From an uncultured Alphaproteobacteria bacterium (lineage in GTDB: Bacteria > Pseudomonadota > Alphaproteobacteria > Rs-D84 > CACZYB01), in assembly GCA_934246625.1 (NCBI GenBank), contig CAKQHZ010000002.1, forward strand, positions 132,817 through 164,816: a DNA stretch of 32,000 bases. The letters run 5' to 3'. The notes under the pieces were generated by a model, which was not told the origin of the DNA, ran no database searches, and saw only the letters and a program-made list of their open reading frames with translations. The first letter of the stretch is position 1. Every line of letters begins with the position of its first letter. A program made the translations under genes and the position numbers. This document shows, piece by piece, positions 6,501 to 31,831 of this stretch.

Positions 6501-6514
6501 TTGTTGATATTTCT

Positions 6515-7140: not shown

Positions 7141-7165
7141 TTTTGCAAATAATACTTGCAAAAAT

Positions 7166-7219: not shown

Positions 7220-7242
7220 AACAATAAAAAAGGAGATAAAAT

Positions 7243-8079: not shown

Positions 8080-8100
8080 CTTTAACAAAAGGAAATAAAA

Positions 8101-8349: not shown

Positions 8350-8362
8350 TTTAGTGTGATAA

Positions 8363-8387
8363 ATCCCCAGTTTTGGGGATTTTTTTT
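8363..8387 (+). terminator. Rho-independent terminator after the capsid operon segment
   Basis: atcccc (8363-8368) pairs with ggggat (8375-8380), followed by T8. Confidence 0.65.
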
Positions 8388-8399
8388 AAGGAGAAATTT

Positions 8400-8957: not shown

Positions 8958-8965
8958 GTGTTGGT

Positions 8966-10870: not shown

Positions 10871-10891
10871 GTTAAATGAAAGGATAATAAT

Positions 10892-11338
10892 ATGGGAGCA
10901 AGTGCTGGTGTTGCCGCAGTTCTTACTGCTGCGGATAGTATTATTGATTATAGAGAAAAAAAGAAGCAACAAAAGGCAAATGAAAAATTATTAAATCAAC
11001 AACAGGAAGTCAAGGAAGAAGAAAATGAAATAAAAAAACAAATTTTAAAAGATGAAAAGACAAATTTGCTTAAAACAAAATTGGCTTCGCAAAAGGCAAA
11101 GTTAGGTGCAAGTGGACTTGTGTCAACAACTGGGTCTTCGGCTGCTTATCTTTCAAGTTTGGAAAAGGATACAGATGAGGAAATTTTGAAAAAAACTTCG
11201 CTTAGTGATTTGAATTTATTAAATGAAACGGCAAATTATGATTACAGAAAAAAGCTAAATTTATTAGATCAAGCAAAGAATGATTATGATTTTTCAAAAG
11301 GCTTGGTTAATAACATTTTTTCAAAAAAATTATTTTAG
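10892..11338 (+). CDS. Small coiled-coil protein in the internal-virion-protein (gp13/gp14) position
   Basis: 148 aa with a hydrophobic N-terminus (GASAGVAAVLTAA) and a K/E-rich coiled-coil-like middle. Assigned from position only. Confidence 0.5.
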   Translation: MGASAGVAAVLTAADSIIDYREKKKQQKANEKLLNQQQEVKEEENEIKKQILKDEKTNLLKTKLASQKAKLGASGLVSTTGSSAAYLSSLEKDTDEEILKKTSLSDLNLLNETANYDYRKKLNLLDQAKNDYDFSKGLVNNIFSKKLF

Positions 11339-11350
11339 GAGAGTTATGTT

Positions 11351-12073
11351 ATGGGTAAAAATAGTTTAGTAAAACATATATATATTTGTGATGGTGTGCA
11401 AAAAAATTTTGACTATCAATTTGAAAGTTTTTCAAAAACAAGTATAAAAGTTTTTATTGATAACTTGATGATAAAATCTGGGTATGAGATAGTTCCATTT
11501 TCTGACAAGGTTGGTGGAAAAATTATTTTTAATACTCCTCCTTTGAAAGGGAAAGTTTTATCGATTATTCGTGAGTTAGATTTTTCACGAAGTTGTGATT
11601 TTCAAACAGGTGGAATTTTTCGTGCTGAAGATTTGAACTATGAACTTAACTATAATATTGCTTGTCTTAATCAAGTCAATGATGTTTTAACTTTGGCAGT
11701 TAAACTTTCACCACTTGATACAAAAATAAATCCAGTATTGCCAAAGGCAAAAGCAGGCTATGCAATTGTTTGGAATGATACAGAAGATGGATTTTCAAAT
11801 TTAGATGTTAATATTACAGAGCAAGTTCGTTATGTTGAAGATTGCACAAATCTTGTTGAAAATCTTTATAATGATTTAAGTGATTTATTTGCAAGCAATT
11901 CTGATATAGGAGTATTGGGGTTTGTGAATAATTTGCTTACGATTTTAAAAGAACATCATGGTGAAGCGTTTGTTGATTTTCAAAATCTTAATTGTGTAGC
12001 AAATGATGTTATTGATTTTGGAAATGTGTCTGATGAATCACAAATTAGTGTGAAAGATAATGGAATACTTTGA
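11351..12073 (+). CDS. Tail fibre protein, T7 gp17 N-terminal (tail-attachment) domain only
   Basis: YICDGVQKNFDYQFESFSKTSIKVFID...LSIIRELDFSRSCDFQTGGIFRAEDLNYELN parallels T7 gp17 YQLDGSNRDFNIPFEYLARKFVVVTL...[31 protein letters not shown]. Only 240 aa, against 553 aa in T7. Confidence 0.7.
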   Translation: MGKNSLVKHIYICDGVQKNFDYQFESFSKTSIKVFIDNLMIKSGYEIVPFSDKVGGKIIFNTPPLKGKVLSIIRELDFSRSCDFQTGGIFRAEDLNYELNYNIACLNQVNDVLTLAVKLSPLDTKINPVLPKAKAGYAIVWNDTEDGFSNLDVNITEQVRYVEDCTNLVENLYNDLSDLFASNSDIGVLGFVNNLLTILKEHHGEAFVDFQNLNCVANDVIDFGNVSDESQISVKDNGIL

Positions 12074-12668
12074 TAAAAAAATCAGTTTTTTGGATTTTTT
12101 GAAAGATTGGTATAAAACTCAGGGACTTTTGTTTCCAGAACATCATAAAAAAATTGCAAAATGGTTGGAGAGTGTTTATTTTTCTGATAAAAAGCGAGGG
12201 CTTTTGCTTGCTTTTCGAAGTAGTGGAAAGTCAACGGTGGTTGGGCTTTTTTGTTCGTGGCTTTTGTATATAAATCCGAATTTAAGGATTTTGGTTGTTG
12301 CAGCAGATACTATGTTGGCAAAAAAGATGGTGCGAAATATCAAATATATTGTTGAACTTCACCCATTATTGGAAAGTATTAGACCAAAGAAAAAGCAAGA
12401 ATGGGCATCTGGAAGTTTTACCGTGGAAAGAAATTTGGTGTTAAGGGACCCATCTGTGATGGCTGTGGGACTTTTATCAAATTCGACTGGAAGCAGGGCT
12501 GATGTTATTATTTGTGATGATGTGGAGGTGCCAAAAAATTGTGATACTTATCAAAAACGGTGTGATTTGAGAGAGAAATTGTTGGAGTTTAATTTTATTT
12601 TGGTGCCTAATGGTATGCAAATTTTTATTGGGACACCGCATACTTTGGATACTATTTATAAAGTTTAG
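12060..12668 (+). CDS. Terminase large subunit, N-terminal fragment (Walker A/B ATPase core); split gene
   Basis: LLAFRSSGKSTV (Walker A), PNLRILVVAAD, DPSVMAVGLLSNSTGSRADVIICDDVEVPKNC (Walker B) and IFIGTPHTLDTIYKV-stop closely track T7 gp19 ([73 protein letters not shown]). The ORF stops exactly after the LYK-equivalent residues. Confidence 0.85.
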   Translation: MEYFDKKISFLDFLKDWYKTQGLLFPEHHKKIAKWLESVYFSDKKRGLLLAFRSSGKSTVVGLFCSWLLYINPNLRILVVAADTMLAKKMVRNIKYIVELHPLLESIRPKKKQEWASGSFTVERNLVLRDPSVMAVGLLSNSTGSRADVIICDDVEVPKNCDTYQKRCDLREKLLEFNFILVPNGMQIFIGTPHTLDTIYKV

Positions 12669-12729
12669 TATTGATTTTAGGGGAATTTTTTAGTTGTTTT
12701 ATACAAAAAAATATTTTTTTAAAATTTTA

Positions 12730-12757
12730 TTGACAAATTCGAATTAGTTTGTATAAT
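12730..12757 (+). promoter_or_regulatory. Near-consensus sigma70 promoter with no ORF behind it
   Basis: TTGACA (12730-12735), a 16-nt spacer, then TATAAT (12752-12757). Confidence 0.6.
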
Positions 12758-12763
12758 GAGGTT

Positions 12764-12894
12764 GTTTCGTTAATAAGAAAAAAGAATTTGCCGAGACGAC
12801 CCCTCATTTCGGCAGATCTGGTGAAAGCCAGTAATAATCCCCTAAGTCATTCCCTCCTTATTTTCTCTCTCCTCGACTTGGGGGATATTTTTTT
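12764..12894 (+). ncRNA. Candidate sRNA with a CU-rich (anti-SD-like) loop
   Basis: It lies downstream of the consensus promoter. Hairpins are tgccga/tcggca (12789-12814) and ctgg/ccag. A 10-bp stem atcccctaag/cttgggggat (12837-12846 / 12877-12886) encloses the 30-nt loop tcattccctccttattttctctctcctcga, followed by T7. No credible ORF is present; the track ORF 12749..12931 starts with TTG inside the -10 box. Confidence 0.35.
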
Positions 12895-13133
12895 GTCGGG
12901 ACGCCCGAGTAATCTCACAAAGGCAAACTAGAATTTTCTACTAACCCCGTAGAAAATTAAGTTTTTGTTTGTTCGGTTTCTCTCTCCTCGACTTGGGGGA
13001 TATTTTTTTAGTTCAGAAAAGTTAGGATTTGTGAGCTTTTGTTGTGTTTTTGAGGGAAAATAGTCAAATTTGTAAAAAATGTGTGAAAAATTAGAATTTT
13101 CTGTTGAAATTTTGGTTTTAAATTGCTAAAAAA

Positions 13134-13358
13134 GAATCAGTTTTTGAAAAGATTCTCGAATCGATAGTAAAATTTAAAAAAAAGAATCGATTCTTGGTGG
13201 TTTTTTAAGGTTTTATTTTATAGACAATTTGAAATTGCAAAAAGAATCTTTTAATTTTTAATATGTTGTTTTTACAGCATTCTTTTTTGTTTTTTGATGG
13301 CTAATAAGTTGCCAAAAAAAGAATCTCTTGACTTTTTTTGTCGATTGCTTTAAGAATC
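13134..13358. promoter_or_regulatory. Cluster of AAGAATC / GANTC motifs, including the palindrome AAGAATCGATTCTT
   Basis: GANTC sites lie at 13134, 13151, 13158, 13184, 13189, 13244, 13321 and 13354, mostly within A-run+GAATC words. The perfect 14-bp palindrome lies at 13182-13195. Confidence 0.5.
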
Positions 13359-13738
13359 GTTGTATGAGGCGAGTGGAAATTTTCCATTTTGTTTCAAACA
13401 TATTCCCTGTTGCGTTCCTTTTCTCTCCTTTCCTCCTTCTCTCCTCGCAACGGGGGATTTTTTTATACTTGAGTTTTTTTCTGACTGATTCCCTTCGTTA
13501 ATGTCTCACTTACGATTTGTTAAGATGCTAGTTTTTTGCAGGGTGGCGTGGCAACAAGCTAAGCAAACCTAAAACTTTTCACTAATGCCGTTCAAAGTTT
13601 AAGGATAGCTATGCTTGGTGTCTCTTCGCAACGGGGGATTTTTTTTATATAATCTCTTCTCAAGATAGTTAAATTTGCATAAAATGAAAAAAATAACTTG
13701 CGTTTTGGGAAAATATAGGTTATAAACTTGTTATCTTT

Positions 13739-13814
13739 GGCTAGGTAGCTCAGTCGGTAGAGCAAAGGACTGAAAATCCTTGTGTCGGCAGTTCGATTCT
13801 GCCCCTCGCCACCA
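13739..13814 (+). tRNA. tRNA-Phe(GAA): tRNA-Phe (anticodon GAA), CCA encoded
   Basis: 76 nt. The D arm is GCTCAGTCGGTAGAGC, the anticodon arm aagga-CTGAAAA-tcctt, and the T arm ggcag-TTCGATT-ctgcc, ending in ACCA. There is one U:C mismatch at acceptor pair 4:69. Confidence 0.9.
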
Positions 13815-13847
13815 TTATTGGTCCCCCGTTTGGGGGATTTTTTATTT

Positions 13848-14141
13848 GTGTCGGCAGTTCGATTGTCCTCGTGATTGAAAATCACTCGTTCGTCCCGTAA
13901 GCCTAAAACTTCGCCAAAGGCTCGTGTTTAGGCAACTATCGACTCCTGCCCCTCGCCACCACTATTGGTCCCTCATTTGGGGGATTTTTTATTTGTGTCG
14001 GCAGTTCGATTGTCCTCGTGATTGAAAATCACTCGTTCGTCCCGTAAGCCTAAAACTTCGCCAAAGGCTCGTGTTTAGGCAACTATCGACTCCTGCCCCT
14101 CGCCACCATTATTGGTCCCCCGCTTGGGGGATTTTTTATTT
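13848..14141. repeat. 147-bp tandem repeat x2 (plus a 12-nt start of a third unit), each unit a tRNA-Phe 3' half interrupted by 81 nt
   Basis: gtgtcggcagttcgatt recurs at 13782 (inside the tRNA), 13848 and 13995, and partially at 14142. The period is exactly 147 bp, and the units differ at only a few positions in the terminator stem. Confidence 0.9.
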
Positions 14142-14222
14142 GTGTCGGCAGTTTATTGACTTTTAAACCTTCGTTAAATGAGTTTGATGTCATATAGTTT
14201 CTTTGCAAAGTAAGGCAAAACC

Positions 14223-14231
14223 TGTGGATAA
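14223..14231. promoter_or_regulatory. Perfect DnaA box (TGTGGATAA = complement of TTATCCACA) upstream of the ftsZ promoter
   Basis: An exact 9-mer located 33 nt upstream of the putative -35 element. Confidence 0.5.
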
Positions 14232-14263
14232 AAGTTTTTTTTCTTAATTTTTGTTTTCTTTTC

Positions 14264-14292
14264 TTAACATTTGGCTTTTTTTATGCTATAGT
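14264..14292 (+). promoter_or_regulatory. sigma70-like ftsZ promoter
   Basis: TTAACA (14264-14269), a 17-nt spacer, then TATAGT (14287-14292). The SD AAGGAGAGAG precedes the ATG at 14322. Confidence 0.5.
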
Positions 14293-14321
14293 TTATTTGA
14301 GAAAAAATTAAGGAGAGAGAT

Positions 14322-16004
14322 ATGATAGGAGAAGGAAACTTCGGCTATAATTCACAAAATGATGATGAAATTCAAAATTTTATTCCACGAATCACTGTAA
14401 TGGGTGTTGGTGGTGCTGGTTGTAATGCTGTTGGCAATATGATTTCTCAAGGTATTGATGGTGTGGATTTTGTTGTGGCAAATACTGATGCTCAATCTTT
14501 GATGTTGTCAAAGGCTCCTCGTAAAATTCAACTTGGAAAACAAACTACTCGTGGATTTGGTGCTGGCTCAAAACCAGAAGTTGGTAAAACTGCGGCTGAA
14601 GAATCTTTGAATGAAATTGCAGATGTCGTTAAAAATGCAAATATTCTTTTCTTGACTGGTGGTATGGGTGGTGGAACTGGAAGTGGTGCTATACCTGTGA
14701 TTGCATCTGTGGCAAAGGAAAAGGGAATTTTGACTATTGCAATTATTACAACTCCTTTTGATTTTGAAGGTGAAAAGAAAAAACGTATTGCAGAGGAGGC
14801 AATAGCTGAATTACTTCCTAATGTGGATTGTGTTATTACTTTGCCAAATCAAAATTTGTTCAAGGTTGCGGATAAACAAATGTCATTTATCAATGCCTTT
14901 AAACTTTCTGATAATGTCCTTTATGAAGGTGTTAGAAATATTACAGATTTGATTATGAAACCTGGTTTGATTAACCTTGATTTCGCAGATATAAGAACTG
15001 TGATGGAAGGTCAGGGAAAAACCATTATTGGAACAAGTGTTCAAAGTGGTGAAGATAGGGCATTGAAAGCAGTGAAGGGTGCTTTGCTTAATCCTCTTCT
15101 TTCTAATGAAAGTATTAGTGGGGCAAAGGGTATTTTGGTAAATATTACTGGTAATGCTGATAATCTTTCTTTGGAAGAAGTTAATGATATTATGAATACA
15201 ATTCGTGCCGATATAAATTCAAATGATGTTAATTTCGGCTTTGGAACTTGCTTTGACCCATCTATGGGTGATAGCTTGAAAGTTGCTATTATTGCAACTG
15301 GTATTAACGGTGATAATGTTAAAACAGATGTAAATACAACAAAAACAGAAGTTAATAATACTTCTTATAATTCATTTAATAATGTTGCAACTTCTAAACC
15401 TTACTCATTTACAAATATTGAAGAAAAAAAAGAAGAAGTTCGTGTTGAGCCAAAACCAATGGAAAAGCCTATGCCTAGTTTTATGGAAGAAACAGTTGTA
15501 AGTGATAATAAACTTGATAATTTCTTTAAAACCGGTGATGAAAAGGATATTCAAGCCTTTATTGATGAGGAAGCAGAAAAACTTAATGTCGCAAGTTCTG
15601 TTTCAAATGAACTTTTTTCTGATGAAAAAAATAGTATTTTAGATAGTAATGAAGATACTTCTTCTTTGGATAATGTATCTTTGAATGGCAATGGTGATGA
15701 TGACCATGATCCTGAACCACCAAAGGGAAAAAAGAAAAATCCTTTGTCTTCTTTCTTTGATATGATTGGTGAAAAGGATAGTGATGATACTTTTTTTGAT
15801 GATGTGGAAAAAGATGATAATGGTGATGTAAAATTTGAAAATCAATCTGAAATATCAGATAAAAAAGAAGATGATAATGTCGTTTTCTTGGCTGGAAATT
15901 TGGATACAAAGGACCCAGATGATAAGCAAATTGATTTGATGGAAATGATAAAGAAAATGGAAGAAACTTTGGAAATTCCTGCGATATTTAAAAAAGGTTC
16001 ATAA
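14322..16004 (+). CDS. ftsZ: Cell division protein FtsZ (long acidic C-terminal linker)
   Basis: GVGGAGCNAV, the tubulin signature GGMGGGTGSGA, and NLDFADIRTVM are all present. An acidic linker of about 230 aa ends in LEIPAIFKK, which looks like the conserved C-terminal peptide. Confidence 0.95.
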   Translation: MIGEGNFGYNSQNDDEIQNFIPRITVMGVGGAGCNAVGNMISQGIDGVDFVVANTDAQSLMLSKAPRKIQLGKQTTRGFGAGSKPEVGKTAAEESLNEIADVVKNANILFLTGGMGGGTGSGAIPVIASVAKEKGILTIAIITTPFDFEGEKKKRIAEEAIAELLPNVDCVITLPNQNLFKVADKQMSFINAFKLSDNVLYEGVRNITDLIMKPGLINLDFADIRTVMEGQGKTIIGTSVQSGEDRALKAVKGALLNPLLSNESISGAKGILVNITGNADNLSLEEVNDIMNTIRADINSNDVNFGFGTCFDPSMGDSLKVAIIATGINGDNVKTDVNTTKTEVNNTSYNSFNNVATSKPYSFTNIEEKKEEVRVEPKPMEKPMPSFMEETVVSDNKLDNFFKTGDEKDIQAFIDEEAEKLNVASSVSNELFSDEKNSILDSNEDTSSLDNVSLNGNGDDDHDPEPPKGKKKNPLSSFFDMIGEKDSDDTFFDDVEKDDNGDVKFENQSEISDKKEDDNVVFLAGNLDTKDPDDKQIDLMEMIKKMEETLEIPAIFKKGS

Positions 16005-16024
16005 AAATAATTTTTTAAACTTTG

Positions 16025-16059
16025 TCCCCCTTTGATTTTTTTCAAAGGGGGATTTTTTT
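16025..16059 (+). terminator. Rho-independent terminator after ftsZ
   Basis: tccccctttga pairs with tcaaaggggga (an 11-bp stem), followed by T7. The portal gene's SD and ATG follow only about 20 nt later. Confidence 0.7.
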
Positions 16060-16079
16060 AACTTAAATAAGGAGTTAAT

Positions 16080-17576
16080 ATGATTGAAAAGGAAATTTTT
16101 GATAAAAATTTTGTTGATGATGTCTATAACAGATATTTGAATGCAATAGAGAAAAGGTCAGTGTGGGAAAGTTATTGGGAAGAATGTTATGAATATGCTT
16201 TGCCACAAAAAAGTGGAACTTTTAATGGTGAAAATTTTTCTAATGTAAAGAAAAATACAAATGTTTTTGATTCCACTGCGGAATCTGCAGTTGACAGACT
16301 TGCAAGTAGTCTTCTTTCCCAACTTACTCCACCATGGTCAAAATGGTTTGGGTTGGAATTTGGTATTGATATAGCTGATGATGATAAAAAGGAAAAGTAT
16401 CTTCAACTTGAAAATATTGAAAAGATTTTGCAATCTCATTTGGATAGGTCAAATTTTTATGTGGAAGCTCATCAATGCTATTTGGATTTAATTACGGTTG
16501 GAACTGCGGTTATGTTATTTGAAGAAAATGCAGTAGGTGAAAATTCCGCATTTAAGTTTACTTCTGTGCCAATGAATGAAGTTGCGTTTGAAGAAAATAC
16601 GAATGGAAAGTTGGATACTGTATTTCGTCGTTCTTATGTCTCACTTGCAAATTTAAAAATAAGGTTTGCCAATGTTATTTTTGATGAAAAACAACAGGAA
16701 ATTATTTCCAAAAACCTTGATAAAAAAGTGTATGTGATAGAGGCTGTGTTGCCACGAATAACTTCTTCTGGACAACAGGGATATAATTATATTGCGTTTA
16801 TTGATGATGTAGAAAATATTTTTAATAGCTCTGTTAAAATAATTCTTAAAACAGGAGTATTTGCAAATTCTCCGTTTATTTGTTTCAGATGGCAAAAGGT
16901 TAGTTCTGAAATTTATGGAAGGTCTCCTGTGATGAAGGCTTTGCCAGATATTAAAACCGCAAATAAAGTTGTGGAACTTATTCTTAAAAATGCGTCTATT
17001 GCAGTAAGTGGTATTTGGCAAGCAGATGATGATGGCGTTTTGAATCCGCAAAATATAACTCTTGCTCCAGGAACAATTATTCCAAAGGCAGTTGGTTCTA
17101 GTGGGCTTACTCCACTTAGAAGTGGTGCCGATTTTGATGTTTCTCAGTTGGTATTGTCTGATTTGCGTGCAAAGATAAATCATTGTTTACTTGTGGATCA
17201 ATTAGATGTGTCAAATAATTTTAAAATGACTGCAACAGAAGTGATGGAAAGAATAAATCAAATATCTCGTGTGTTGGGGGCAACCTATGGCAGACTTCAA
17301 TCTGAATTTTTGACACCTGTGGTTATTCGTGCAATTTCTATTTTAAAAAGACGTGGTGAAATTTCAGATATACTTGTTAATGGATATGAAGTTGATTTGA
17401 AATATCAATCTCCACTTGCTCAAAATCAAATTGTTCGTGATGCAGAAAATATTTTGAATTGGATAAAAACTTTGTCAGAAGTGTGTGGTGATGCAACAAG
17501 TGTTATTGATAAAAAAGCGGTTGCGTTATATTTGGGAAAAGTTTTTGGTATTTCAGAACGATTGATTTGTGCATAG
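16080..17576 (+). CDS. Portal (head-to-tail connector) protein, T7 gp8-like
   Basis: VYNRYLNAIEKR..W.ECYEYALPQ, VDRLASSLLSQLTPPWSKWF, YGRSPVMKALPDI and MTATEVMERINQISRVLGATYGRLQSEFLTPVV parallel T7 gp8 (VYERLKNDR...CAQYTIPS, LNNLASKLMLALFPMQTWM, YGRSYIEEYLGDL, VTAEEIRYVASELEDTLGGVYSILSQELQLPLV). Confidence 0.85.
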   Translation: MIEKEIFDKNFVDDVYNRYLNAIEKRSVWESYWEECYEYALPQKSGTFNGENFSNVKKNTNVFDSTAESAVDRLASSLLSQLTPPWSKWFGLEFGIDIADDDKKEKYLQLENIEKILQSHLDRSNFYVEAHQCYLDLITVGTAVMLFEENAVGENSAFKFTSVPMNEVAFEENTNGKLDTVFRRSYVSLANLKIRFANVIFDEKQQEIISKNLDKKVYVIEAVLPRITSSGQQGYNYIAFIDDVENIFNSSVKIILKTGVFANSPFICFRWQKVSSEIYGRSPVMKALPDIKTANKVVELILKNASIAVSGIWQADDDGVLNPQNITLAPGTIIPKAVGSSGLTPLRSGADFDVSQLVLSDLRAKINHCLLVDQLDVSNNFKMTATEVMERINQISRVLGATYGRLQSEFLTPVVIRAISILKRRGEISDILVNGYEVDLKYQSPLAQNQIVRDAENILNWIKTLSEVCGDATSVIDKKAVALYLGKVFGISERLICA

Positions 17577-17586
17577 TGAGGATATT

Positions 17587-18465
17587 ATGGAGGAAGATTT
17601 TAGCTTGCCTTTTTTGGCTGGGTTTGATGTCCTTAAAATTCCAGTTATTGAAAATGGGATTCCTGTATGGCCTGAAAAATTCCCGATTGAAAAAATTGAG
17701 GAATTAAAGGTTCGGGTTGGAATGACAAAATTTTCTTCGCAAATGCTACTTAATCCTGTGCAATTAAATAAAGGGCGATTTGATATAAACAAGTTAAAAT
17801 TTTATAATTCTGATTTGTGTGTAGAGGAACATAATCACCTTTTGACCTTTACAATAAATGGTAAAAAAGTTGTCAGTTGTTCGTGTTGGTGGGATCCTTC
17901 GTATGGTTCAATCGGTGGTGATGGAAGTGTTATATCTGTTGTCTTTATTGATGTGGAAGGGCATTACTATCTTCATGACATAAAATATCTTTATCATTCG
18001 GATAAGAAAAAGGAAGAAATTCAATCGGCATTGGAACAATGTCAGCAGGTTGGTGAGTTTGTTAAGGCAAACTATATACCTTCGGTTTATGTTGAAACGA
18101 ATGGTATTGGTAAATTTTTACCAGAGTTTTTAAGAAATGAGTTTTTGAAAATGGGAATTTCCGCTGGGGTTGTTGAAAAGGTTTCTAGGGTTTCAAAAAA
18201 TCTTAGGATTTTAGATGCTTTTGATGTGATTACTTCGGCAGGATATTTATATGTTAATGAAAAGGTGAAAAATACCCCTTGGGTTGCGGAATTTTGTGAT
18301 TGGGGTGTTGATTCAAAAGCTCATGATGATGGACTTGATAGTGTGGCTGGTGCAATTTCGTCTGTGCCAGCCAAGTTGCCTATTTCTGTGTTGGCAAAAC
18401 AAAGAAAAGTAAGTTTTGCAGGGAAAACGTATAGGGTAAAGACAAATTTTGATATAGACTTTTGA
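17587..18465 (+). CDS. Terminase large subunit, C-terminal fragment (rest of the ATPase domain plus RNase H-like nuclease); split gene
   Basis: I prefer the ATG at 17587, which has a GAGGA SD 5 nt upstream; the track uses the GTG at 17569, overlapping the portal stop. IPVWPEKFP...MTKFSSQMLLNP matches T7 gp19 IIWPALYP...GKAGFTLQFMLNP. The nuclease motifs are WWDPSYGSIGGDGSVISVV, VYVETNGIG and KAHDDGLDSVAGAI (T7: ALAHDDRLDALA). Confidence 0.85.
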   Translation: MEEDFSLPFLAGFDVLKIPVIENGIPVWPEKFPIEKIEELKVRVGMTKFSSQMLLNPVQLNKGRFDINKLKFYNSDLCVEEHNHLLTFTINGKKVVSCSCWWDPSYGSIGGDGSVISVVFIDVEGHYYLHDIKYLYHSDKKKEEIQSALEQCQQVGEFVKANYIPSVYVETNGIGKFLPEFLRNEFLKMGISAGVVEKVSRVSKNLRILDAFDVITSAGYLYVNEKVKNTPWVAEFCDWGVDSKAHDDGLDSVAGAISSVPAKLPISVLAKQRKVSFAGKTYRVKTNFDIDF

Positions 18466-18484
18466 TTTTTTAGACAAATTATTA

Positions 18485-18513
18485 TTGACAAATAATGTTT
18501 TTAAGTTTATATT
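18485..18513 (+). promoter_or_regulatory. sigma70-like promoter
   Basis: TTGACA (18485-18490), a 17-nt spacer, then TATATT (18508-18513). Confidence 0.45.
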
Positions 18514-18542
18514 TAAGCTATATTTAATAAAGAGGTCAAAAT

Positions 18543-19184
18543 ATGGATATAAAGAAAAAAAGATATTATATTGTTTTTACTGGATTATTTCTTATAATTC
18601 TAGGTATGCTTATTTATGCTTTGCGACCTGTGAAAAAAGTTAAAAAAGAATCTAATGTGTTGACAAAAGTGTCGGCAGTAAAGACTGTAAAGGTAGTAAA
18701 GGCTGAAAAAGCAAAGGGATTGCCTCTTAATTTTGTTTATGATGTGCCAAGTGATTATAAAAGAACTATACCTCATTATGTTGGTATGAAACGACATATT
18801 GAAGATATGGATAATATGCAAATTGTTTGTAATGGTAAAAATTGTAAAAGACAGGTTCTTACAACTTCAAAGGTAAAAGTTTATCATACCAAAAAAGCAA
18901 AGAAAACTTTGAGTGTTGTAAATGGAAATGTTGTTTTTTCAAAAAATAATTTAAAATATCTTAAAAGTGATGTGAAAATTATTGGTGATTTGTATATTAA
19001 GGATATAAATTTCCTTAAAATTCCTGATAATTTTATTGTGCTTGGTAATATTTACCTTATCAATTCAGAAGGTTTGACTTTTATGGGTAAAACATATATT
19101 GATGGTCATATTTTTGTTAAGGGTAAAAGTAGTGTTAGGGCTTTGCCTTATAATGTGAAATTAACAGGACAGATTTTTATTTAA
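18543..19184 (+). CDS. Membrane-anchored protein with a repetitive beta-strand-rich C-terminus; unknown function
   Basis: The N-terminal TM helix is YYIVFTGLFLIILGMLIYAL. The C-terminus (IIGDLYIKDINFLKIPDNFIVLGNIYLINSEGLTFMGKTYIDGHIFVKG) has a periodic hydrophobic pattern. Confidence 0.5.
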   Translation: MDIKKKRYYIVFTGLFLIILGMLIYALRPVKKVKKESNVLTKVSAVKTVKVVKAEKAKGLPLNFVYDVPSDYKRTIPHYVGMKRHIEDMDNMQIVCNGKNCKRQVLTTSKVKVYHTKKAKKTLSVVNGNVVFSKNNLKYLKSDVKIIGDLYIKDINFLKIPDNFIVLGNIYLINSEGLTFMGKTYIDGHIFVKGKSSVRALPYNVKLTGQIFI

Positions 19185-25146: not shown

Positions 25147-25806
25147 ATGTTTAAAAAATTTTTAATTTTGTTTTTTGTGATTGGGTTTGGTTTTGTCTTT
25201 GATGCTTTTTCACAAACAAGGACTAGAGCCCATTATGGACGTGGAAATGGTTTTACTTTTTCTCAAGATGCAAAGGAGCGAATTAGACTTGGTTGTCCAA
25301 ATGTTTTAAGACGTGCAAATCAATTTTCAAAGGATATGAAAACAAAGGGTGCATCAAATATTGAATCTGAAATCATTTATATGTGTTCAGTTAATTCTAT
25401 TGAACTTGAAAAGGGGGATTTGGGTCCATGGAAAAAATTTGTTCATGCCCTTGAAAAGGTATTTAAGCAATTCAGAAATCTTATTTATCTTGCCGCTATA
25501 TTTATGCTTCTTTGGATTATCGTAAAGGCTATGTATGAAGGTGATATGAAGTGGATGCATATTGGTATGATGGTTTTGGGTATTACTATGCTTTCGTTTG
25601 CAGAGGTGTTTTTGGATATTGCAACCAATAGAGTTACCATAGATGATATTCGAAATAGTGAAATTTATGTTGATTGTCGTGAACCTGATAGAGGTCTTTA
25701 TATTTGTTCTGTGGATACAGATGGTGCGGTTGATAAAGAATCTGTGTATTTATATGATGTGAATCACAAGGCAACTAAAACCAAAGTCTTTAAAGGACTT
25801 TATTAG
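25147..25806 (+). CDS. Secreted/membrane protein with a central two-helix hydrophobic hairpin; unknown function
   Basis: The signal peptide is MFKKFLILFFVIGFGFVFDAFS. The two adjacent TM helices are LIYLAAIFMLLWIIVKAMY and MHIGMMVLGITMLSFAEVFLDIA. Cys pairs are present in both flanking soluble regions. Confidence 0.55.
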   Translation: MFKKFLILFFVIGFGFVFDAFSQTRTRAHYGRGNGFTFSQDAKERIRLGCPNVLRRANQFSKDMKTKGASNIESEIIYMCSVNSIELEKGDLGPWKKFVHALEKVFKQFRNLIYLAAIFMLLWIIVKAMYEGDMKWMHIGMMVLGITMLSFAEVFLDIATNRVTIDDIRNSEIYVDCREPDRGLYICSVDTDGAVDKESVYLYDVNHKATKTKVFKGLY

Positions 25807-26352: not shown

Positions 26353-26381
26353 TTGATATTATTCTTAAAATGAGATATTAT
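26353..26381 (+). promoter_or_regulatory. sigma70-like promoter of the surface-protein locus
   Basis: TTGATA (26353-26358), a 17-nt spacer, then TATTAT (26376-26381). Confidence 0.4.
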
Positions 26382-26428
26382 ACATATAAGTTTAACCAAT
26401 GAGAAAGGAAAAAATATGTTAGACAAAT

Positions 26429-27922
26429 TTGACAAAACGGGGGGGGGTAAAACAGGTAAATAATTCTGAAACTTCTCTTAAAATCAATTCTGGTTTTAAA
26501 TCAATAAAATTCGGTTTGGTTAGTTTTTTAACCATTGCAACCTTGATAGGTGCAACATCTGTAAATGCAAGTCCTCGTAGAAATAGAAGACAAGGTAAAA
26601 CAACCCTTAACCAAAATAATACAAGAATTAATGCTGGTATGACTTCTGGTTATAGTAATAAATTTTTTACAAATACTCTTATTACATTTATGGAACAAAG
26701 ACAAATTGATGTTGATACAGTTATCAATGCAGGAACAACAACAGGAATAGCTTTATTAAAGGCAGATGTTGTTGGTAATAAACCAGCATATAAACTTTGT
26801 TTCCCTTGCTCTTCTATTGTTATGAAAGGTAATGTTGAAGAAGCAACGAGTATGACTGGTGAAAAATGTTATACTTTAAAGGCTGGTGATTTTAAATCTC
26901 AAATAGTTATTCCTGCAAATGCACAAAAAACTTGTGGAGATTTATCTTCAAAACGTTTAACAATTCGTTCAAATGATGAATTTGAAACAATCGCGGATAG
27001 TGCAAATTTGGCAATAGTTCAAAATGATTTTGGTGTGGATTATGATAATATTGCTCTTTCTGAAGATACTGAAACAAAGGAACTTTCTCAAGTTTTTCTT
27101 GATGCAAAAGCAAAGGCAGTAGAGGCATGTGTAAATTCTGATTTTTCAAAATCTTATGATACTGTAAAGGGTTTATTTATTGGTTCAACTGTTGCTTCTG
27201 GTGTTGCAACTGGAACTGGTGCTGCGGGAACAGCTATTAGTGCTCTTAATATAAATAAGGGACAAAGTGCAACAGTAGATTATGACAAACTTAAAAAACT
27301 TGTTGATGTAGATGTATCTGTGAAAGATTATTTTAAATGTGAAACAAAGAAAGCTCTTAACACTATTGTTGATACAGATGAAACTTGTGATATTACTTCT
27401 GGAACAACAGATAGTAGTGTAAAAACTGTATTTGCTAAGGCTTTGGCAATGAAAGATTTAAACAATGAACTTTTTTCTGAAAAATTTATGTCTTTTGTTG
27501 ATAAATATAAAACTGAAACAGATGAGACTAAAAAAACAGAATATGCAAATGAATTAAAGTCAAGAAAATCTTCTTTGATTAAGGATTTTGAAAATGTTGA
27601 TGATTTAGTTGCAAATGTAGTTTCTGCACAAAAATCACTTGAAACAAAACTTTCTTTTGTGGAAGAAAATCTTATTGATAAAATTGAAAGTGATAAAAAT
27701 TTAAAGAAAAAGTATGCAATGACAGGAGCAAATATTGCTAATGTGGCTTTGTCTGGTGCAACATCTGTGTCTGGTGTAGCTACTTCTGTGATGGGATTTA
27801 GTGCTGTTGGTGAAATTGATAAACTTATCAATCGTGTAAAAGAATGTAAATCTGCAGCGTCAAAAATGTATGATGCAGGTCTTGCTCTTGAAGCTCAATT
27901 ACAAGAATTAAAAGGAGAATAA
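26429..27922 (+). CDS. Secreted Cys-containing, glycine-zipper-rich protein, large paralogue A (probable true start ATG 26416, out of frame at G9)
   Basis: Track ORF from a TTG start. The signal peptide is IKFGLVSFLTIATLIGATSVNA|SP. It shares SGY..K.F.N..IT..E.R.I......N.G..G......D.....YKLC.PC, EAC..S and a C-terminal ..CK.AA.KM..AG.ALE with the 28450 ORF. Confidence 0.7.
   Translation: MTKRGGVKQVNNSETSLKINSGFKSIKFGLVSFLTIATLIGATSVNASPRRNRRQGKTTLNQNNTRINAGMTSGYSNKFFTNTLITFMEQRQIDVDTVINAGTTTGIALLKADVVGNKPAYKLCFPCSSIVMKGNVEEATSMTGEKCYTLKAGDFKSQIVIPANAQKTCGDLSSKRLTIRSNDEFETIADSANLAIVQNDFGVDYDNIALSEDTETKELSQVFLDAKAKAVEACVNSDFSKSYDTVKGLFIGSTVASGVATGTGAAGTAISALNINKGQSATVDYDKLKKLVDVDVSVKDYFKCETKKALNTIVDTDETCDITSGTTDSSVKTVFAKALAMKDLNNELFSEKFMSFVDKYKTETDETKKTEYANELKSRKSSLIKDFENVDDLVANVVSAQKSLETKLSFVEENLIDKIESDKNLKKKYAMTGANIANVALSGATSVSGVATSVMGFSAVGEIDKLINRVKECKSAASKMYDAGLALEAQLQELKGE
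26439..26447 (+). promoter_or_regulatory. Homopolymeric G9 tract 21 nt after the SD-preceded ATG (candidate slipped-strand phase-variation switch)
   Basis: The ATG at 26416, with an AAGGAAAAAA SD, reads MLDKFDKTGGGKTGK-stop at G9. With G8 (or G11) it would read straight into the 497-aa ORF. This is the only G/C run longer than 5 that I noticed in the window. Confidence 0.6.
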
Positions 27923-27923
27923 T

Positions 27924-28325
27924 ATGAAAATTTCCAAAATAGTTTTAATGGCTGTTGCAATGTTTTCTTTGACTGCAAATGCAAATACTAAATTTACAGT
28001 TAATGATAAAGATGCAGCAGAATATTGTAAAAATTTAGATGTTAATAAAATTGAAAAACTTAAAAGTTTGGCTACAACCTCTGCTATTGGTGGAGTTGTT
28101 GGTGCTGCTTCTGGTGCATCTGGAGTTGCGACTTCTTTGATAAGTGGTTCAAAACTTTCTGATGAAAAAGGTAAAAAAGGACTTGATATTGCAACCACAA
28201 TTACCTCTGGTTTAGGGGCAACAGCTGGAATTATGTCTGTGTCAACCAGTGGTGCTGGGCTTGCTGAAATTGAAGGTATCTTTGATACAATCAATAAATG
28301 TAAGGAAAAAATGTCAAAAATTTAA
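27924..28325 (+). CDS. Secreted small glycine-zipper protein, small paralogue A
   Basis: The signal peptide is MKISKIVLMAVAMFSLTANA. There are two uncharged G/A/S/T-rich segments (LATTSAIGGVVGAASGASGVATSLISG and LDIATTITSGLGATAGIMSVSTSGAGLA) and two Cys. Its start lies 1 nt after the stop of the large gene, with the SD inside that gene's 3' end. Confidence 0.7.
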   Translation: MKISKIVLMAVAMFSLTANANTKFTVNDKDAAEYCKNLDVNKIEKLKSLATTSAIGGVVGAASGASGVATSLISGSKLSDEKGKKGLDIATTITSGLGATAGIMSVSTSGAGLAEIEGIFDTINKCKEKMSKI

Positions 28326-28449
28326 TTATTATTTCGTCTTTTTTATAAAAACAAACTCTTCGTTTTGAGGGGTTTGTTTTTTTTGTTGTTTATGTCTAAA
28401 TTTTATGATATAATACAGATAATTTTGTATAAAAAGGAAAGGAAATAAT

Positions 28450-29445
28450 ATGAAACAAAAAGTTAGTTTAGTTTCTTTGGCTTTGCTTCTTGCCTTTACA
28501 TCTGTTGATGCAGGTGCAAGGGTTTCTCGTTCAAGACATGCTTCTTCAAAGAAAATTAGTTCAGGTTTGGTCTCTGGATATAATGATAAAATTTTCGTTA
28601 ATCCATCAATCACATTGATTGAAAAGCGTTCTATTGAACTTGCTCCACTTATCAATGTTGGTGAAAATGGTATCGGAAAAATTACAAGAAAAGCAGATGG
28701 CACAGAGCCATATTATAAACTTTGCATACCTTGTGCAAATATATTCTTAGAAGCAACTTTGGCTGATGGAAGTTTTAAATCTTTGACTGCTAATGGAAGT
28801 TGTTATTCTTTGGAACCTGGTGCAAAATATACTATTGCAACAGCTGATGGTGCAATTAACACTTGCGGTTCAAAGTTAAGAATGACAATCAATGATATGA
28901 GAAGTGCTGCAAAAACAGAAGTTGATAGTGTTGTTTTAAATCTTCTTCCAAACAGCAGTGCTTATGATTACACAAATATTCAGCTTGGTCAAGATACTTT
29001 GATGACAGATTTGATTACTGATTATAATGATGCAAAACGTGAAGCGATTGAGGCTTGCACTTCTAGCAACATTATGGAAACATTGGATATTATCAAAGGT
29101 TGGATGATTGCTTCTGTTTCAGGAAGTGGTGTTGCAACTGTAACAGGTGCTACTGATACTGCTTTTCAAACTATTGAAACTGTGAAAGGTGATACTAAAG
29201 TAGGAAATGGTGTTCTTCAAGGGACATTGTCAGCAGTAAGTGCAACAGGTAATACTTTGTCAATGACTGGTGCAATCGTTTCTGCAGTGCAACTTGATAA
29301 ACTTGTTTCAAGTTTGGATAAGTGTAAAAAAGCTGCTCAAAAAATGAACAATGCTGGTGTTGCTTTGGAATATGGATTGGCTGACTTGATGTCTGCTGAT
29401 GAAAGCAATGTTAAAACATCAACAGAAACAAAAACTGAAGAATAA
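28450..29445 (+). CDS. Secreted Cys-containing, glycine-zipper-rich protein, large paralogue B
   Basis: The signal peptide is MKQKVSLVSLALLLAFTSVDA. It is collinear with paralogue A but lacks about 160 aa of the middle region. An extended -10 (TGATATAAT) lies upstream. Confidence 0.75.
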   Translation: MKQKVSLVSLALLLAFTSVDAGARVSRSRHASSKKISSGLVSGYNDKIFVNPSITLIEKRSIELAPLINVGENGIGKITRKADGTEPYYKLCIPCANIFLEATLADGSFKSLTANGSCYSLEPGAKYTIATADGAINTCGSKLRMTINDMRSAAKTEVDSVVLNLLPNSSAYDYTNIQLGQDTLMTDLITDYNDAKREAIEACTSSNIMETLDIIKGWMIASVSGSGVATVTGATDTAFQTIETVKGDTKVGNGVLQGTLSAVSATGNTLSMTGAIVSAVQLDKLVSSLDKCKKAAQKMNNAGVALEYGLADLMSADESNVKTSTETKTEE

Positions 29446-29456
29446 AGGAGTTTAAT

Positions 29457-29888
29457 ATGAAAAAATTATTTATACTTATGTTTTCATTATTATCTGTTGC
29501 TGTAAAAGCAGAAAAGCCAGTTTTCCCAAGATATACTGAAAATGAAAAGGCAACAGTTAATCATTGTAGAGCAATTAATACTTCAAAAATAGAAGAAATC
29601 AAAGGAAGAATGATTGCAGTTGGTGTTGTAAGTGGTATTAGTGCTGGTGCAAATACTTATTCTGCTGTTGTTAACTATGCTAAATTCGATAAGGCAGGAG
29701 CTGATGCAGATGAGAAGAAAAAAGCCTCAGCTACGGCTCACGGAATTGCATCAAATATTGCAACTGGTGTGGCTGCGGCTGGTTCTATTACTTCTACTGG
29801 TTTGACTGGTGCAAGTTTGGCAGATTTGGAAAACATTATTGATAATGTTAAAAAATGTCAAAGCGGTTTAAACTCACTTAGCTATTAG
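29457..29888 (+). CDS. Secreted small glycine-zipper protein, small paralogue B
   Basis: The signal peptide is MKKLFILMFSLLSVAVKA. It has the same architecture as 27924..28325 (C....N.SKIE.IKG, G/A/S-rich segments, LE.I.D.V.KC). Confidence 0.75.
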   Translation: MKKLFILMFSLLSVAVKAEKPVFPRYTENEKATVNHCRAINTSKIEEIKGRMIAVGVVSGISAGANTYSAVVNYAKFDKAGADADEKKKASATAHGIASNIATGVAAAGSITSTGLTGASLADLENIIDNVKKCQSGLNSLSY

Positions 29889-29924
29889 AATATAGATAGA
29901 AACTGTTTCTAATTACATATTTTG

Positions 29925-29946
29925 CCTCCCAATTGGGAGGTTTTTT
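29925..29946 (+). terminator. Rho-independent terminator
   Basis: cctccc pairs with gggagg, followed by T6. Confidence 0.6.
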
Positions 29947-30008
29947 ATATTTCCTTTTACATTTTTGCTTTTCGTTGTTATACTTTATTGAAAACAAGGG
30001 AGATAAAT

Positions 30009-30547: not shown

Positions 30548-31831
30548 ATGCAAGTAGTTGAACAAATTGAAGAACATAGCTTTGGTGTAAGTTTGATTCT
30601 TTCATATAAACCTGAGTCTGGTATTGGGCAAAGGATTGCTCGTTCTTTGGATAATAAGTTTGGTTGGAAAAAAAATGTGGTTTCAAAACAACTTAATTTT
30701 GATAAGCCTATCGTTCTTTGTTTTGGTGGAGCAGGGATTGATGATGATAAATCCGCAAATGGTATTGCAAAGATTGTTCAGGGTATGCTTGGAAGAAACA
30801 ATATTTATGATAATGATGTTCAACTTTTTTCTGTTGTGTATCCAAAGGATTTGGAACGACTTGGCGATGAAAGAGCTAAATTCCTTCGTGGAGAAATTAA
30901 GAAAAAAATCGATTACATAGGACGAATTTATGAAACTATATTTATCCCAATGTTGCGATTTATTATTGAAAATGGTGATGATAAATCTTCACTTGATATA
31001 GTCAGAAAGCAATTTCGTAATATTACAATATTTTCACATTGTCATGGAAGTTTTGTTGCATGTGAGCTTATAAATTATTTAAAGGAAGGTTTTGAAATCC
31101 TTTGTAAAAAAAATACTATTTCAAAAGAAAATGCGGATAGCTTGATTGGTGAAATTACCAATATAATGCTTAGCCCTCGTGATGGGGTGCAATATAGCTA
31201 TGGTGCACTTAATCTTGGTTTTACTATGGCGACGGATAATCTTGAAGGTGGTATAAAGGAACCTCAACGTAAGGGATTTAATGTTGGTATTTCGAATTTT
31301 GCGGATAAACTTTTGGCTGGAAAAATTAAAGGGTGTGAAAGTTTTGGATTTAAAGATGGTGCCTTTTTTAATTTTTGGGATACGGACAGATTTGGTGCCG
31401 ATATTAAATTTATTGATGATATGGACGACTCTTTTTGTGGAAATGTTTCTGAAATGATTTATTCCAATATTTTTATGGGTAATCATTTCCATCTTTTTGA
31501 AAATTATTGTTCTTTGAATGGTGGTTTTGATGAAGATGGTGTTGGTGCAATTCTTAAAAATGAAAAGGGTAAAAATTTTACTTATATGATTGCGAGAGCT
31601 TTGCAAAATGCGGTTTCTCTTTCTTTGGCAGGTAAAAAACGCACCATTGAAAATGTTGTTTCAAATGCTACTCCGATTATTTATAATAAAGGAGATAAAG
31701 AAAGTAATCTTGATTTTTTTGATGTGAAGTTTGATGGTTCACTTGAAACTTTGTTTGCAAATTATAACAAGATGATTGGTGGGTCAAAAACATCTTTGAC
31801 TTTATCTGAAATTTCACAAAATCAAAGATAG
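30548..31831 (+). CDS. Large cytoplasmic-looking protein of unknown function (possible alpha/beta-hydrolase-like core with a Cys nucleophile elbow)
   Basis: 427 aa with no signal peptide. PIVLCFGGAGIDD is followed later by NITIFSHCHGSF, which fits beta-strand plus small-x-Cys-x-Gly, and this is only suggestive. I recognise no family. Confidence 0.55.
   Translation: MQVVEQIEEHSFGVSLILSYKPESGIGQRIARSLDNKFGWKKNVVSKQLNFDKPIVLCFGGAGIDDDKSANGIAKIVQGMLGRNNIYDNDVQLFSVVYPKDLERLGDERAKFLRGEIKKKIDYIGRIYETIFIPMLRFIIENGDDKSSLDIVRKQFRNITIFSHCHGSFVACELINYLKEGFEILCKKNTISKENADSLIGEITNIMLSPRDGVQYSYGALNLGFTMATDNLEGGIKEPQRKGFNVGISNFADKLLAGKIKGCESFGFKDGAFFNFWDTDRFGADIKFIDDMDDSFCGNVSEMIYSNIFMGNHFHLFENYCSLNGGFDEDGVGAILKNEKGKNFTYMIARALQNAVSLSLAGKKRTIENVVSNATPIIYNKGDKESNLDFFDVKFDGSLETLFANYNKMIGGSKTSLTLSEISQNQR

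Follow-up and report, generated by a model that had tools for sequence, protein, structure and literature searches.

Glycine-zipper lipoproteins with two transmembrane (TM) segments (SlyB, YfgH, Pcp and the Rickettsia 17-kDa surface antigen; PF05433) reside in the Gram-negative envelope and are built around two self-associating helices rich in Gly and Ala. A different kind of envelope variation is provided by homopolymer contingency loci, namely the poly-G and poly-C switches found in surface-structure genes of Campylobacter, Helicobacter, Neisseria and Haemophilus. SlyB-type lipoproteins combine the glycine-zipper hairpin with a folded periplasmic domain and assemble into oligomeric rings (bioRxiv 10.64898/2025.12.22.696046). 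In Caulobacter, the Cdz system consists of CdzC and CdzD, two glycine-zipper proteins of 84-86 amino acids (aa) with RTX-type leaders, which are encoded by adjacent genes, act jointly, associate with the cell surface, are exported by an adjacent type I secretion system and require the immunity protein CdzI; the survey in which Cdz relatives were sought excluded by its filter those zippers that were interrupted by Cys or Pro or that contained polar or charged spans (PMC5380434). Here, we analyze two consecutive gene pairs, each consisting of a large (L) and a small (S) gene, in a stretch of 32,000 nucleotides (nt) of contig CAKQHZ010000002.1 from an uncultured alphaproteobacterium (GTDB lineage Rs-D84; CACZYB01), hereafter the window, which has a G+C content of ~31%. 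We conclude that the four proteins define a new lineage-restricted family, which is characterized by a glycine-zipper module with two Cys residues and a conserved partnership of L and S, and that the pair has been duplicated in this species, with pair 1 being phase-variable and pair 2 always in frame and hypervariable at the tip of the predicted hairpin.

The list of open reading frames (ORFs) confirms the four genes of the initial annotation, with the same sizes and all on the forward strand. The first pair comprises L1 (26429-27922; 497 aa from a TTG codon in the state found in the window, in which a poly-G tract has nine residues, and 501 aa from the ATG at 26416 in the ON state discussed below) and S1 (27924-28325; 133 aa), whereas the second comprises L2 (28450-29445; 331 aa) and S2 (29457-29888; 143 aa). 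The stop codon of L1 and the ATG of S1 are separated by 1 nt, with AAAGGAG upstream of S1, and the gap between L2 and S2 is 11 nt, with AAGGAG overlapping the L2 stop codon; each small gene has its Shine-Dalgarno sequence within the end of the upstream large gene, and L2 has a ribosome-binding site (RBS) of its own. A promoter-like site of the first pair (26353-26381; TTGATA, a 17-nt spacer and TATTAT), recognized solely by its match to 10 of 12 consensus positions, is placed downstream of the terminator hairpin of the HU gene. Scanning revealed terminator-like hairpins followed by T-runs both between the two pairs (28347-28391; 16-pair stem) and after S2 (29924-29951; 7-pair stem with 5 GC pairs). 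The arrangement of ORFs, RBSs, promoter-like sites and terminators fits two bicistronic operons, which we predict the four genes to be. Contigs identical or nearly identical to the window come exclusively from metagenome assemblies.

All four proteins were originally described as carrying signal peptides, and their N-termini indeed read that way: in the sequences and their hydropathy profiles, a hydrophobic stretch precedes a cleavage motif of the small-x-small type (ANA↓N, VDA↓G, VKA↓E and VNA↓S). By the same reading of the sequences, no lipobox is present on any of the four proteins, and the first ~35 residues are devoid of Cys; the first Cys is C35 in S1, C37 in S2, C92 in L2 and C123 in L1. 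Behind the putative signal peptide, S1 and S2 each consist of a single S-type module (module hidden Markov model [HMM] E-values of 2.6e-28 and 4.3e-38, respectively). L2 is composed of a putative signal peptide, a β-rich N-domain (residues ~39-185), a module (residues ~187-300; module HMM E-value of 7.7e-11), a conserved amphipathic C-terminal helix and an acidic tail. The N-domain of L1 (residues ~71-215; 26639-27073), with its CxPC motif and conserved Cys residues, is homologous to that of L2 according to the alignment and is followed by a module in two halves. The first half (residues 216-277; 27074-27259; module HMM domain E-value of 1.8e-10) contains the helix with the Cys of the EAC motif, a base helix and the first uncharged segment rich in G/A/S/T (uncharged run at residues 248-276), and the second half (residues 429-482; 27713-27874; module HMM domain E-value of 2.6e-8) contains the second uncharged segment (uncharged run at residues 429-461), a base helix and the Cys of the CK motif. 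Between the two lies a charged, probably helical tip insert of ~150 aa (residues 278-428; 27260-27712), which corresponds to a gap in the alignment of the large proteins.

L1 and L2 are clearly homologous (BLASTP E-value of 6e-39, 36% identity over the N-terminal 244 aa; 2e-7 for the C-terminal end), as are S1 and S2 (E-value of 3e-14); in pairwise comparisons, the matches between large and small proteins are marginal (4e-4 and 0.005). Profile-profile comparison using hhalign of 5 small with 8 large proteins yielded a probability of 96.7% and an E-value of 4.2e-10, with the alignment extending, on the small side, from the residue after the signal peptide to the C-terminal Cys motif and, on the large side, from just before the Cys of the EAC motif to the Cys of the CK motif, that is, over ~110 aa. 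Similarly, the HMM of the small proteins assigned 30.8 bits to the L2 module and 39.0 bits to the L1 module, compared with a mean of ~0.5 ± 2 bits and maxima of 16.7 (L2 module) and 13.0 (L1 module) in 1000 composition-preserving shuffles. Since both types of comparison span the whole mature small protein, the small protein represents a free-standing copy of the ~110-residue C-terminal module of the large one, and the L and S modules are ancient paralogues. The homology proposed at the outset between the C-terminus of the large proteins and the small proteins thus stands, but it covers the entire module rather than the last ~60 aa of the large proteins.

The anatomy of the module was deduced from an alignment of 32 modules, in which those of the window were combined with those of distant relatives. 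Invariance is restricted to two columns, both of them Cys; the Lys of an “IK” motif and one Ser are nearly invariant. Together with the six Cys residues that are invariant among the 8 large proteins, these columns bear out the conserved Cys positions remarked upon initially. The module begins with a short helix and the first Cys, followed by a charged amphipathic base helix, an uncharged helix of 24-33 residues rich in G/A/S/T, a variable charged loop, a second uncharged helix, a second base helix and the second Cys; in the large proteins, a conserved amphipathic helix follows the second Cys. The two arms are of equal length, with 41 profile positions between the first Cys and the loop and 40 between the loop and the second Cys, and in each of them, ~12 charged amphipathic positions beside the Cys give way to ~28 uncharged positions rich in G/A/S/T, interspersed with I/V/L/M at intervals of three or four residues. 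In both of these uncharged segments, hydrophobicity follows a period of 100 degrees (p=0.006 and p=0.015 against permutations), so that α-helices rather than strands are expected. The periodicity and the equal arms around the loop agree with the helical-hairpin look noticed originally, and we consider an antiparallel helical hairpin to be the likely fold of the module, in which a disulfide would staple the base and the loop would form the tip. The uncharged segments have a mean Kyte-Doolittle hydropathy over 19 residues of 1.05-1.45 and summed Hessa energies of +4 to +6 kcal/mol, compared with 2.2 and -0.7 kcal/mol, respectively, for a TM helix of the protein encoded by the neighboring gene p219. 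The inserts at the tip of the large proteins differ radically by species, being Cys-rich and charged in P0007-P0009, a low-complexity run of Thr and Glu in P0005, and repetitive and coiled-coil-like in P0011 and P0012; the tip of the hairpin appears to tolerate almost any hydrophilic cargo.

The N-domain of L2 is predicted by AlphaFold2 to be β-rich, with predicted local distance difference test (pLDDT) values of 72-84; L2 was the protein modeled, and the L1 equivalent is assigned by alignment. Foldseek searches with the N-domain retrieved weak and generic β-sandwich matches (E-values of ~1e-3, TM-score ≤0.22). Four Cys residues, including those of the C-x-P-C motif, are invariant in the N-domains of the 8 large proteins, and this pattern may reflect structural disulfides, or else a redox or metal site. 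The C-x-P-C motif (CIPC/CFPC) occupies residues 92-95 of L2 (28723-28734) and residues 123-126 of L1 (26795-26806), and its position is invariant across the large proteins, with one relative having CFAC.

To delineate the family, we combined several searches. Among 5.8 billion proteins, a word-indexed search recovered 8 of the large type; when 1.84 billion representatives were scanned in full with HMMER, 47 proteins emerged, only ~10 of which contain the N-domain, and a scan of the GTDB species representatives recovered 4 loci; in the JGI metagenome collection, neither a protein-pattern scan for the large family nor a DNA-pattern scan for the S2 loop alleles produced any match. The named relatives are all annotated as “hypothetical protein” and originate from Alphaproteobacteria, Rickettsiales or unclassified metagenome-assembled genomes (MAGs). 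According to the record names, some of the carriers are Hadza and Nepali human gut metagenomes (including contigs L024 and L027), whereas other family members (including those of L010 and L011) come from MAGs labeled Mgla, LOHA32 and E19 and from MAGs of a “Rickettsiales bacterium”. The family appears to be confined to lineages associated with animal guts.

In each of the five other species-level lineages with DNA sequence, exactly one large gene is followed, 14-17 nt later, by one small gene, and L and S are adjacent in all 6 of the 6 species-level loci. The pair always directly precedes dut and, in most cases, follows rmuC, a gene for a 220-aa membrane protein and the HU gene. Given that the other lineages possess a single pair at this same chromosomal position, the two pairs in the window represent a tandem duplication of an ancestral pair, as had been surmised from the window itself; the locus is vertically inherited within a housekeeping neighborhood. 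More distant relatives contain one to three modules behind unrelated N-terminal regions. P0017 and P0022 are encoded by stand-alone genes amid housekeeping genes, and in these two neighborhoods, the only ones inspected, no secretion, immunity or mobility genes lie beside them. In P0016, P0018 and P0020, an L-type module is followed by an S-type module within a single chain: the L-module HMM assigns 57-87 bits to the first module but 9-16 bits to the second, while the S HMM assigns them 8-28 and 40-59 bits, respectively. Such Rosetta-stone fusions provide independent support for a physical partnership between L and S. The complex postulated initially on the basis of translational coupling is therefore probable, considering the adjacency of the genes in every pair and the single-chain fusions in distant relatives.

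The start of L1 required revision. The initial annotation began the gene at 26416, but the ATG at this position lies in a different frame from the L1 ORF, from which it is separated by a tract of nine G residues (G9; 26439-26447), and the 497-aa length of L1 hinges on a TTG at 26429 that has no RBS. The ATG (26416-26418), out of frame with the L1 ORF in the window, is preceded by a good RBS (GAAAGGA; RBS and ATG together at 26403-26418), and the region 26403-26430 is 79% identical to the region with the RBS and ATG of L2 (28437-28464). Translation from this ATG in the window proceeds through the G9 tract and terminates after 15 codons. The tract is the sole G/C homopolymer of at least 7 nt in the window, and its length varies from 6 to 10 across assemblies (6, 7, 9 and 10 among the contigs inspected first). 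When five contigs were aligned over 7.9 kb, no other indel distinguished the near-identical contigs L012-L015 from one another, and the remaining three indel columns separate only the window from this group; the A8 and T8 runs in the same alignment are invariant. These three, which are all the indels besides poly-G among the five contigs, comprise one-base indels at 26303 and 26324, each in an arm or tail of the terminator of the HU gene, and a third at 26409, where the A-run between the L1 RBS and ATG is A6 in the window and A5 elsewhere, shifting the spacing between the RBS and the ATG.

The ON form of L1 is present in natural populations. The 90% cluster of L1 contains 37 sequences in four length classes (501, 497, 496 and 468 aa), and the 501-aa form starts with MLDKFDKTGGVKQ, which is the exact product predicted with the ATG at 26416 in frame. 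Among the 15 listed cluster members, the 501-aa ON form is represented by 17 contigs, the 497- and 496-aa forms by 56 and the 468-aa form by 26. At the DNA level, seven ON contigs have ACT followed by G7, in frame, whereas OFF contigs have tracts of G6-G10. Over 467 residues, no difference exists between P0072 (497 aa), P0073 (501 aa, ON) and P0074 (468 aa), which thus represent one L1 allele in three frames, indicating that the tract changes faster than the rest of the gene. We also considered that the ATG at 26416 is not the true start, the first eight contigs all being OFF, and rejected this on account of the RBS homology to L2 and the 501-aa ON form in 17 contigs. In sum, a homopolymer in the 5′ coding region, between the ATG at 26416 and the L1 frame, sets the reading frame and is polymorphic in length among otherwise identical alleles, with both ON and OFF states, which by sequence qualifies L1 as a phase-variable contingency gene. 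Slippage of the tract would thereby switch pair 1 on and off. In the window, L1 is in an OFF frame, and S1 keeps its own putative RBS. Like the established contingency loci, L1 encodes an exported protein, has a G-run directly behind its start codon that changes in length by single bases, and is found in all three frames in natural populations, but it differs from them in that its protein family is new and its host is an uncultured gut alphaproteobacterium, a lineage from which we know of no description of such poly-G switches.

A test for diversifying selection, suggested together with the initial annotation, was clearly positive. Compared with contig L012, S2 has 13 nonsynonymous and 0 synonymous differences, all within codons 74-93 of the tip loop (codons 74-95; 29676-29741), and the remaining ~370 nt are identical. 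In an allele catalogue drawn, like the others below, from members of protein clusters, 19 of the 20 loop sites vary among 18 S2 alleles (mean pairwise difference of 0.39), versus pairwise differences of 0-0.06 outside the loop and of 0.08 in the signal region, the last value being inflated by truncated cluster members. Indels between strains also occur in the loop. The clusters of L1, S1, L2 and S2 comprise 20-37 distinct proteins from more than 100 contigs. For L2, the ratio of nonsynonymous to synonymous substitution rates (dN/dS) in comparison with L012 is 1.0 (25.5 nonsynonymous and 7.5 synonymous differences), and 14 of the 15 amino acid changes fall within residues 178-291. Across 17 alleles of L2, the two segments and the loop vary at 23-34% of their sites and the N-domain at 3%, making the module (29008-29349) the focus of strain variation in L2. 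Overall, 48 of the 116 substituted columns of the 7.9-kb alignment are located at 28913-29912. By contrast, dN/dS against L012 is 0.06 for L1 and 0.06-0.25 for the flanking genes. When the more distant strain L018 is used, dN/dS reaches 1.32 for L1 and 1.40 for S2 (with a 5-codon indel in the loop), 0.61 for L2 and 0.60 for S1, versus 0.09 for dut, and the changes in L1 are concentrated in the tip insert, its most divergent part. The same pattern is seen in a second species, in which P0067-P0070 differ only in the loop. A diversity-generating retroelement targeting the S2 loop was considered and discarded, there being no second copy of the loop at the locus and no reverse transcriptase domain in the gene tables of related contigs. 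Of the three functions entertained at the outset, namely surface antigen, adhesin and pore-former, the outcome of the selection test favors the surface antigen, without proving it.

The combination of phase variation with a hypervariable loop is a classic signature of structures exposed to antibody or phage. Its occurrence in this locus points to an adaptive antagonist, such as host antibody or phage, to which the tip would be exposed, and suggests that the proteins are displayed on the cell surface. We estimate that there is about an even chance that the locus encodes a lineage-specific, two-component hetero-oligomer of the envelope or surface that is under diversifying selection. According to the mechanism we envisage, the hairpins of L and S would pack against each other via their small-residue faces, yielding a hetero-oligomeric helical bundle, and a disulfide formed in the periplasm would staple the base of the hairpin. 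The uncharged distal ~28 residues (~42 Å) would not be hydrophobic enough to halt in the inner membrane while being exported, and the distal segments would pass through the Sec translocon to become buried later in the bundle or in a membrane. They would be long enough to embed the bundle then in a membrane, most plausibly the outer membrane of the cell itself or its surface layer, with the tip loops facing outside, where host antibody or phage could reach them.

Several considerations weigh against this interpretation. The dN/dS values come from pairwise comparisons of few strains, and localized recombination, including recombination with unseen cassettes, could contribute to the pattern in the loop. 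The lengths of the poly-G tract were taken from assembled consensus sequences, not from reads, and the proposed interaction between L and S is deduced from gene adjacency and fusion. AlphaFold2 models reached a mean pLDDT of 51 for L2 (8 sequences) and 45 for S2 (32 sequences), with the helices of the module below 50 in both; the modeled fold of the module was not used as evidence, and the hairpin follows from the logic of the sequence. Furthermore, the four proteins display no lipobox, β-barrel, known surface-sorting signal or evident route across or into the outer membrane, and the tip inserts of 150-230 aa in L1, P0011 and P0012 would be difficult to move across a membrane, which argues against a simple hairpin spanning the outer membrane in the case of the large proteins.

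Sensitive HMM searches, which had been recommended from the outset, led to no family assignment and agree with the initial impression that the proteins cannot be placed in any known family. No Pfam or NCBIfam entry was matched above threshold by the four proteins, 10 relatives or 32 modules, and the glycine-zipper families of Pfam were not listed for any of these sequences at E-values of up to 1. A search of PDB chains with a profile of 28 modules and E-values of up to 10 returned exclusively viral F0 proteins and one designed protein, and no SlyB, and the profile of the large proteins produced only sub-threshold echoes in the PDB. The SlyB group and the window proteins are alike in the envelope hairpin of two helices rich in Gly and Ala, to which SlyB, too, adds a folded domain. 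They differ in that lipobox and lipid anchor are missing from the window proteins, which also have no Pfam or PDB sequence match to the group, the module has longer arms (~40 residues), a predicted two-Cys staple and a long, charged, hypervariable loop, and the system consists of two paralogous genes and is subject to phase variation and diversifying selection.

The likeness to the SlyB-type hairpin with its folded periplasmic domain nevertheless raises the alternative of a housekeeping oligomer that stabilizes the envelope, residing in the periplasm or at the inner leaflet of the outer membrane and forming, as SlyB, YfgH and Pcp do, a ring around lipids and outer-membrane proteins under stress. 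Vertical inheritance in a housekeeping neighborhood and the conservation of both the N-domain and the segments would accord with such a role. However, the lack of a lipobox on all four proteins and of any Pfam glycine-zipper match, or of a SlyB match in the PDB even at E-values of up to 10, speaks against it, and neither the phase switch nor the 13:0 proportion of nonsynonymous to synonymous changes in the loop would be expected of a housekeeping periplasmic protein. We regard this alternative as decidedly unlikely.

The sub-threshold echoes lead to a different type of protein. Segment 2 of the module (e.g., S2 residues 96-134, 29742-29858) echoes, in the PDB, the fusion peptide and HRA of the henipavirus F protein (E-values of 0.0035-0.05), and two modules have sub-threshold matches to Fusion_gly of Pfam; other sub-threshold echoes include the diphtheria toxin T domain (E-value of 0.003, one member), YopD (four members, E-values of 0.12 or worse) and 2-TMS holins. 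The likeness to fusion peptides, the T domain and YopD consists in an apolar helix rich in G/A/T/S/I/V followed by an amphipathic helix, but the matches are short, fall below thresholds and lack a common domain architecture, amounting to an analogy at most. Echoes of the fusion-peptide type probably reflect compositional convergence of apolar helices rich in G/A/T.

Because the only echoes, albeit sub-threshold, are to helical proteins that insert into membranes, the pair could also be read as a two-component membrane-damaging toxin, be it a pore-former or a bacteriocin, from which the L and S hairpins, once released, would insert into the membrane of a host, protist or competitor, with an immunoglobulin (Ig)-like domain binding the receptor. 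Two adjacent genes for marginally hydrophobic, amphipathic hairpins resemble two-component toxins, killing by two glycine-zipper proteins is known in Alphaproteobacteria (Cdz, PMC5380434), and an arms race with a receptor or an immunity protein could drive diversifying selection. Several observations make us consider a toxin unlikely. The loci examined lack an immunity gene, a dedicated secretion system and any mobile-element context, and the synteny with housekeeping genes (rmuC, HU and dut) is conserved across species, whereas bacteriocin islands are usually horizontally mobile (PMC5380434). Moreover, the variable part is the tip of the hairpin and not the putative receptor-binding N-domain, in which 2-3% of sites vary, and the database echoes, being below family thresholds, could be compositional.

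The Cdz system itself shares with the window proteins an alphaproteobacterial origin and two adjacent glycine-zipper genes, but the latter proteins differ in their signal-peptide-like N-termini, mature lengths of 110-480 aa (as opposed to the 5-10 kDa typical of Cdz-like bacteriocins), invariant Cys residues and charged loop. No pair of HlyD and ABC exporter genes lies beside the L and S genes in the window or in the gene and Pfam tables of contigs L001-L007, L012-L018, L019 and L021; no gene for a small TM immunity protein accompanies the pair across species; and no type I secretion, immunity or mobility genes were found around the family members examined. In L019, an ABC transporter gene lacking an HlyD partner is located 4 kb from the gene for P0022. 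Membership in the Cdz-like bacteriocins was rejected on the basis of the absent type I secretion system and immunity gene, the signal-peptide-like N-terminus, the Cys residues and the charged loop.

Pilus subunit genes of host-associated bacteria commonly undergo tandem duplication and variation, and a small secreted protein in which a charged loop joins two apolar helices is reminiscent of pilins of the VirB2/TrbC type. The locus might accordingly specify a surface fiber or pilus-like appendage, with S as the major subunit, L as a minor or tip subunit equipped with an Ig-like adhesin domain, and the small-residue helices as the core of the filament; the weak, generic β-sandwich matches of the N-domain and a weak TrbC/VirB2 match (E-value of 4e-4) two genes upstream, in conserved synteny, would be in line with such an appendage. 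Yet, S and L have no pilin match in Pfam (neither TrbC nor T4SS_pilin was matched by S1, S2, L1 or L2), their segments have Kyte-Doolittle values of 1.05-1.45 versus 1.83-2.21 in the VirB2-like neighbor, and this neighbor is separated from the operon by the HU gene and a terminator. Genes for an assembly machinery were not found nearby, and variation is lowest in the N-domain, the would-be adhesin. A fiber is, in our judgment, very unlikely.

The hetero-oligomer of the envelope or surface is the interpretation we prefer, and it could extend to a new class of exported glycine-zipper hairpins stapled by disulfides, which would constitute a two-subunit α-helical scaffold in the outer (or host) membrane and present a hypervariable tip without a lipid anchor, a β-barrel or a known secretion system. 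We advance this extension tentatively and think that it is more probably wrong than right. Should it hold, the locus would exemplify an unrecognized architecture for antigen display or membrane insertion in Alphaproteobacteria of the human gut, in which phase variation and loop variation are combined, and the hairpin model, if true, would introduce a new α-helical architecture of the envelope or of membranes in a field where β-barrels and lipoproteins prevail. The uncultured Alphaproteobacteria of the gut are functionally almost unknown, and this rare family bears three independent signs of an important exposed function, namely a hypermutable on/off switch, a loop with extreme nonsynonymous variation and a duplication that divides the two strategies between the pairs. 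The proteins are candidate antigens and markers for strain tracking and offer a handle on interactions with host immunity or phages, and the module is a candidate for a new domain-family entry.

The surroundings of the locus deserve brief mention. The product of p219 (25147-25806; 219 aa) has a putative signal peptide, two strongly hydrophobic helices (Kyte-Doolittle values of 1.8-2.2) and a C-terminal extension containing Cys; its TrbC/VirB2 pilin match (E-value of 4e-4) is weak and below threshold, and a protein of 220 or 221 aa is encoded at the same position in two other species. A homologue of lipid A phosphoethanolamine transferase is encoded near the locus in related contigs, consistent with an outer membrane containing lipopolysaccharide. 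Downstream, an ORF of 427 aa (30548-31831) has no family match; it is present in the strain group of the window and missing from L018, where a 117-nt fragment is left, and from the other species, which have different genes after dut, and is thus a strain-variable accessory gene.

Elsewhere in the window, structural genes of a T7-like podovirus are scattered among housekeeping genes over positions 4859-19184. They encode a scaffold-like protein (5330-6064), the capsid (7243-8079), tail (8373-8957) and nozzle (8966-10870) proteins, an internal virion protein (10892-11338), the N-terminus of a tail fiber (11351-12073) and the portal (16080-17576). The large terminase gene is seemingly split into two parts, 12060-12668 corresponding to positions 270-458 of phrog_38 and 17569-18465 to positions 458-715, with the tRNA-Phe gene (13739-13814), ftsZ (14322-16004) and the portal gene in between. 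This set of genes could represent a rearranged or domesticated prophage.

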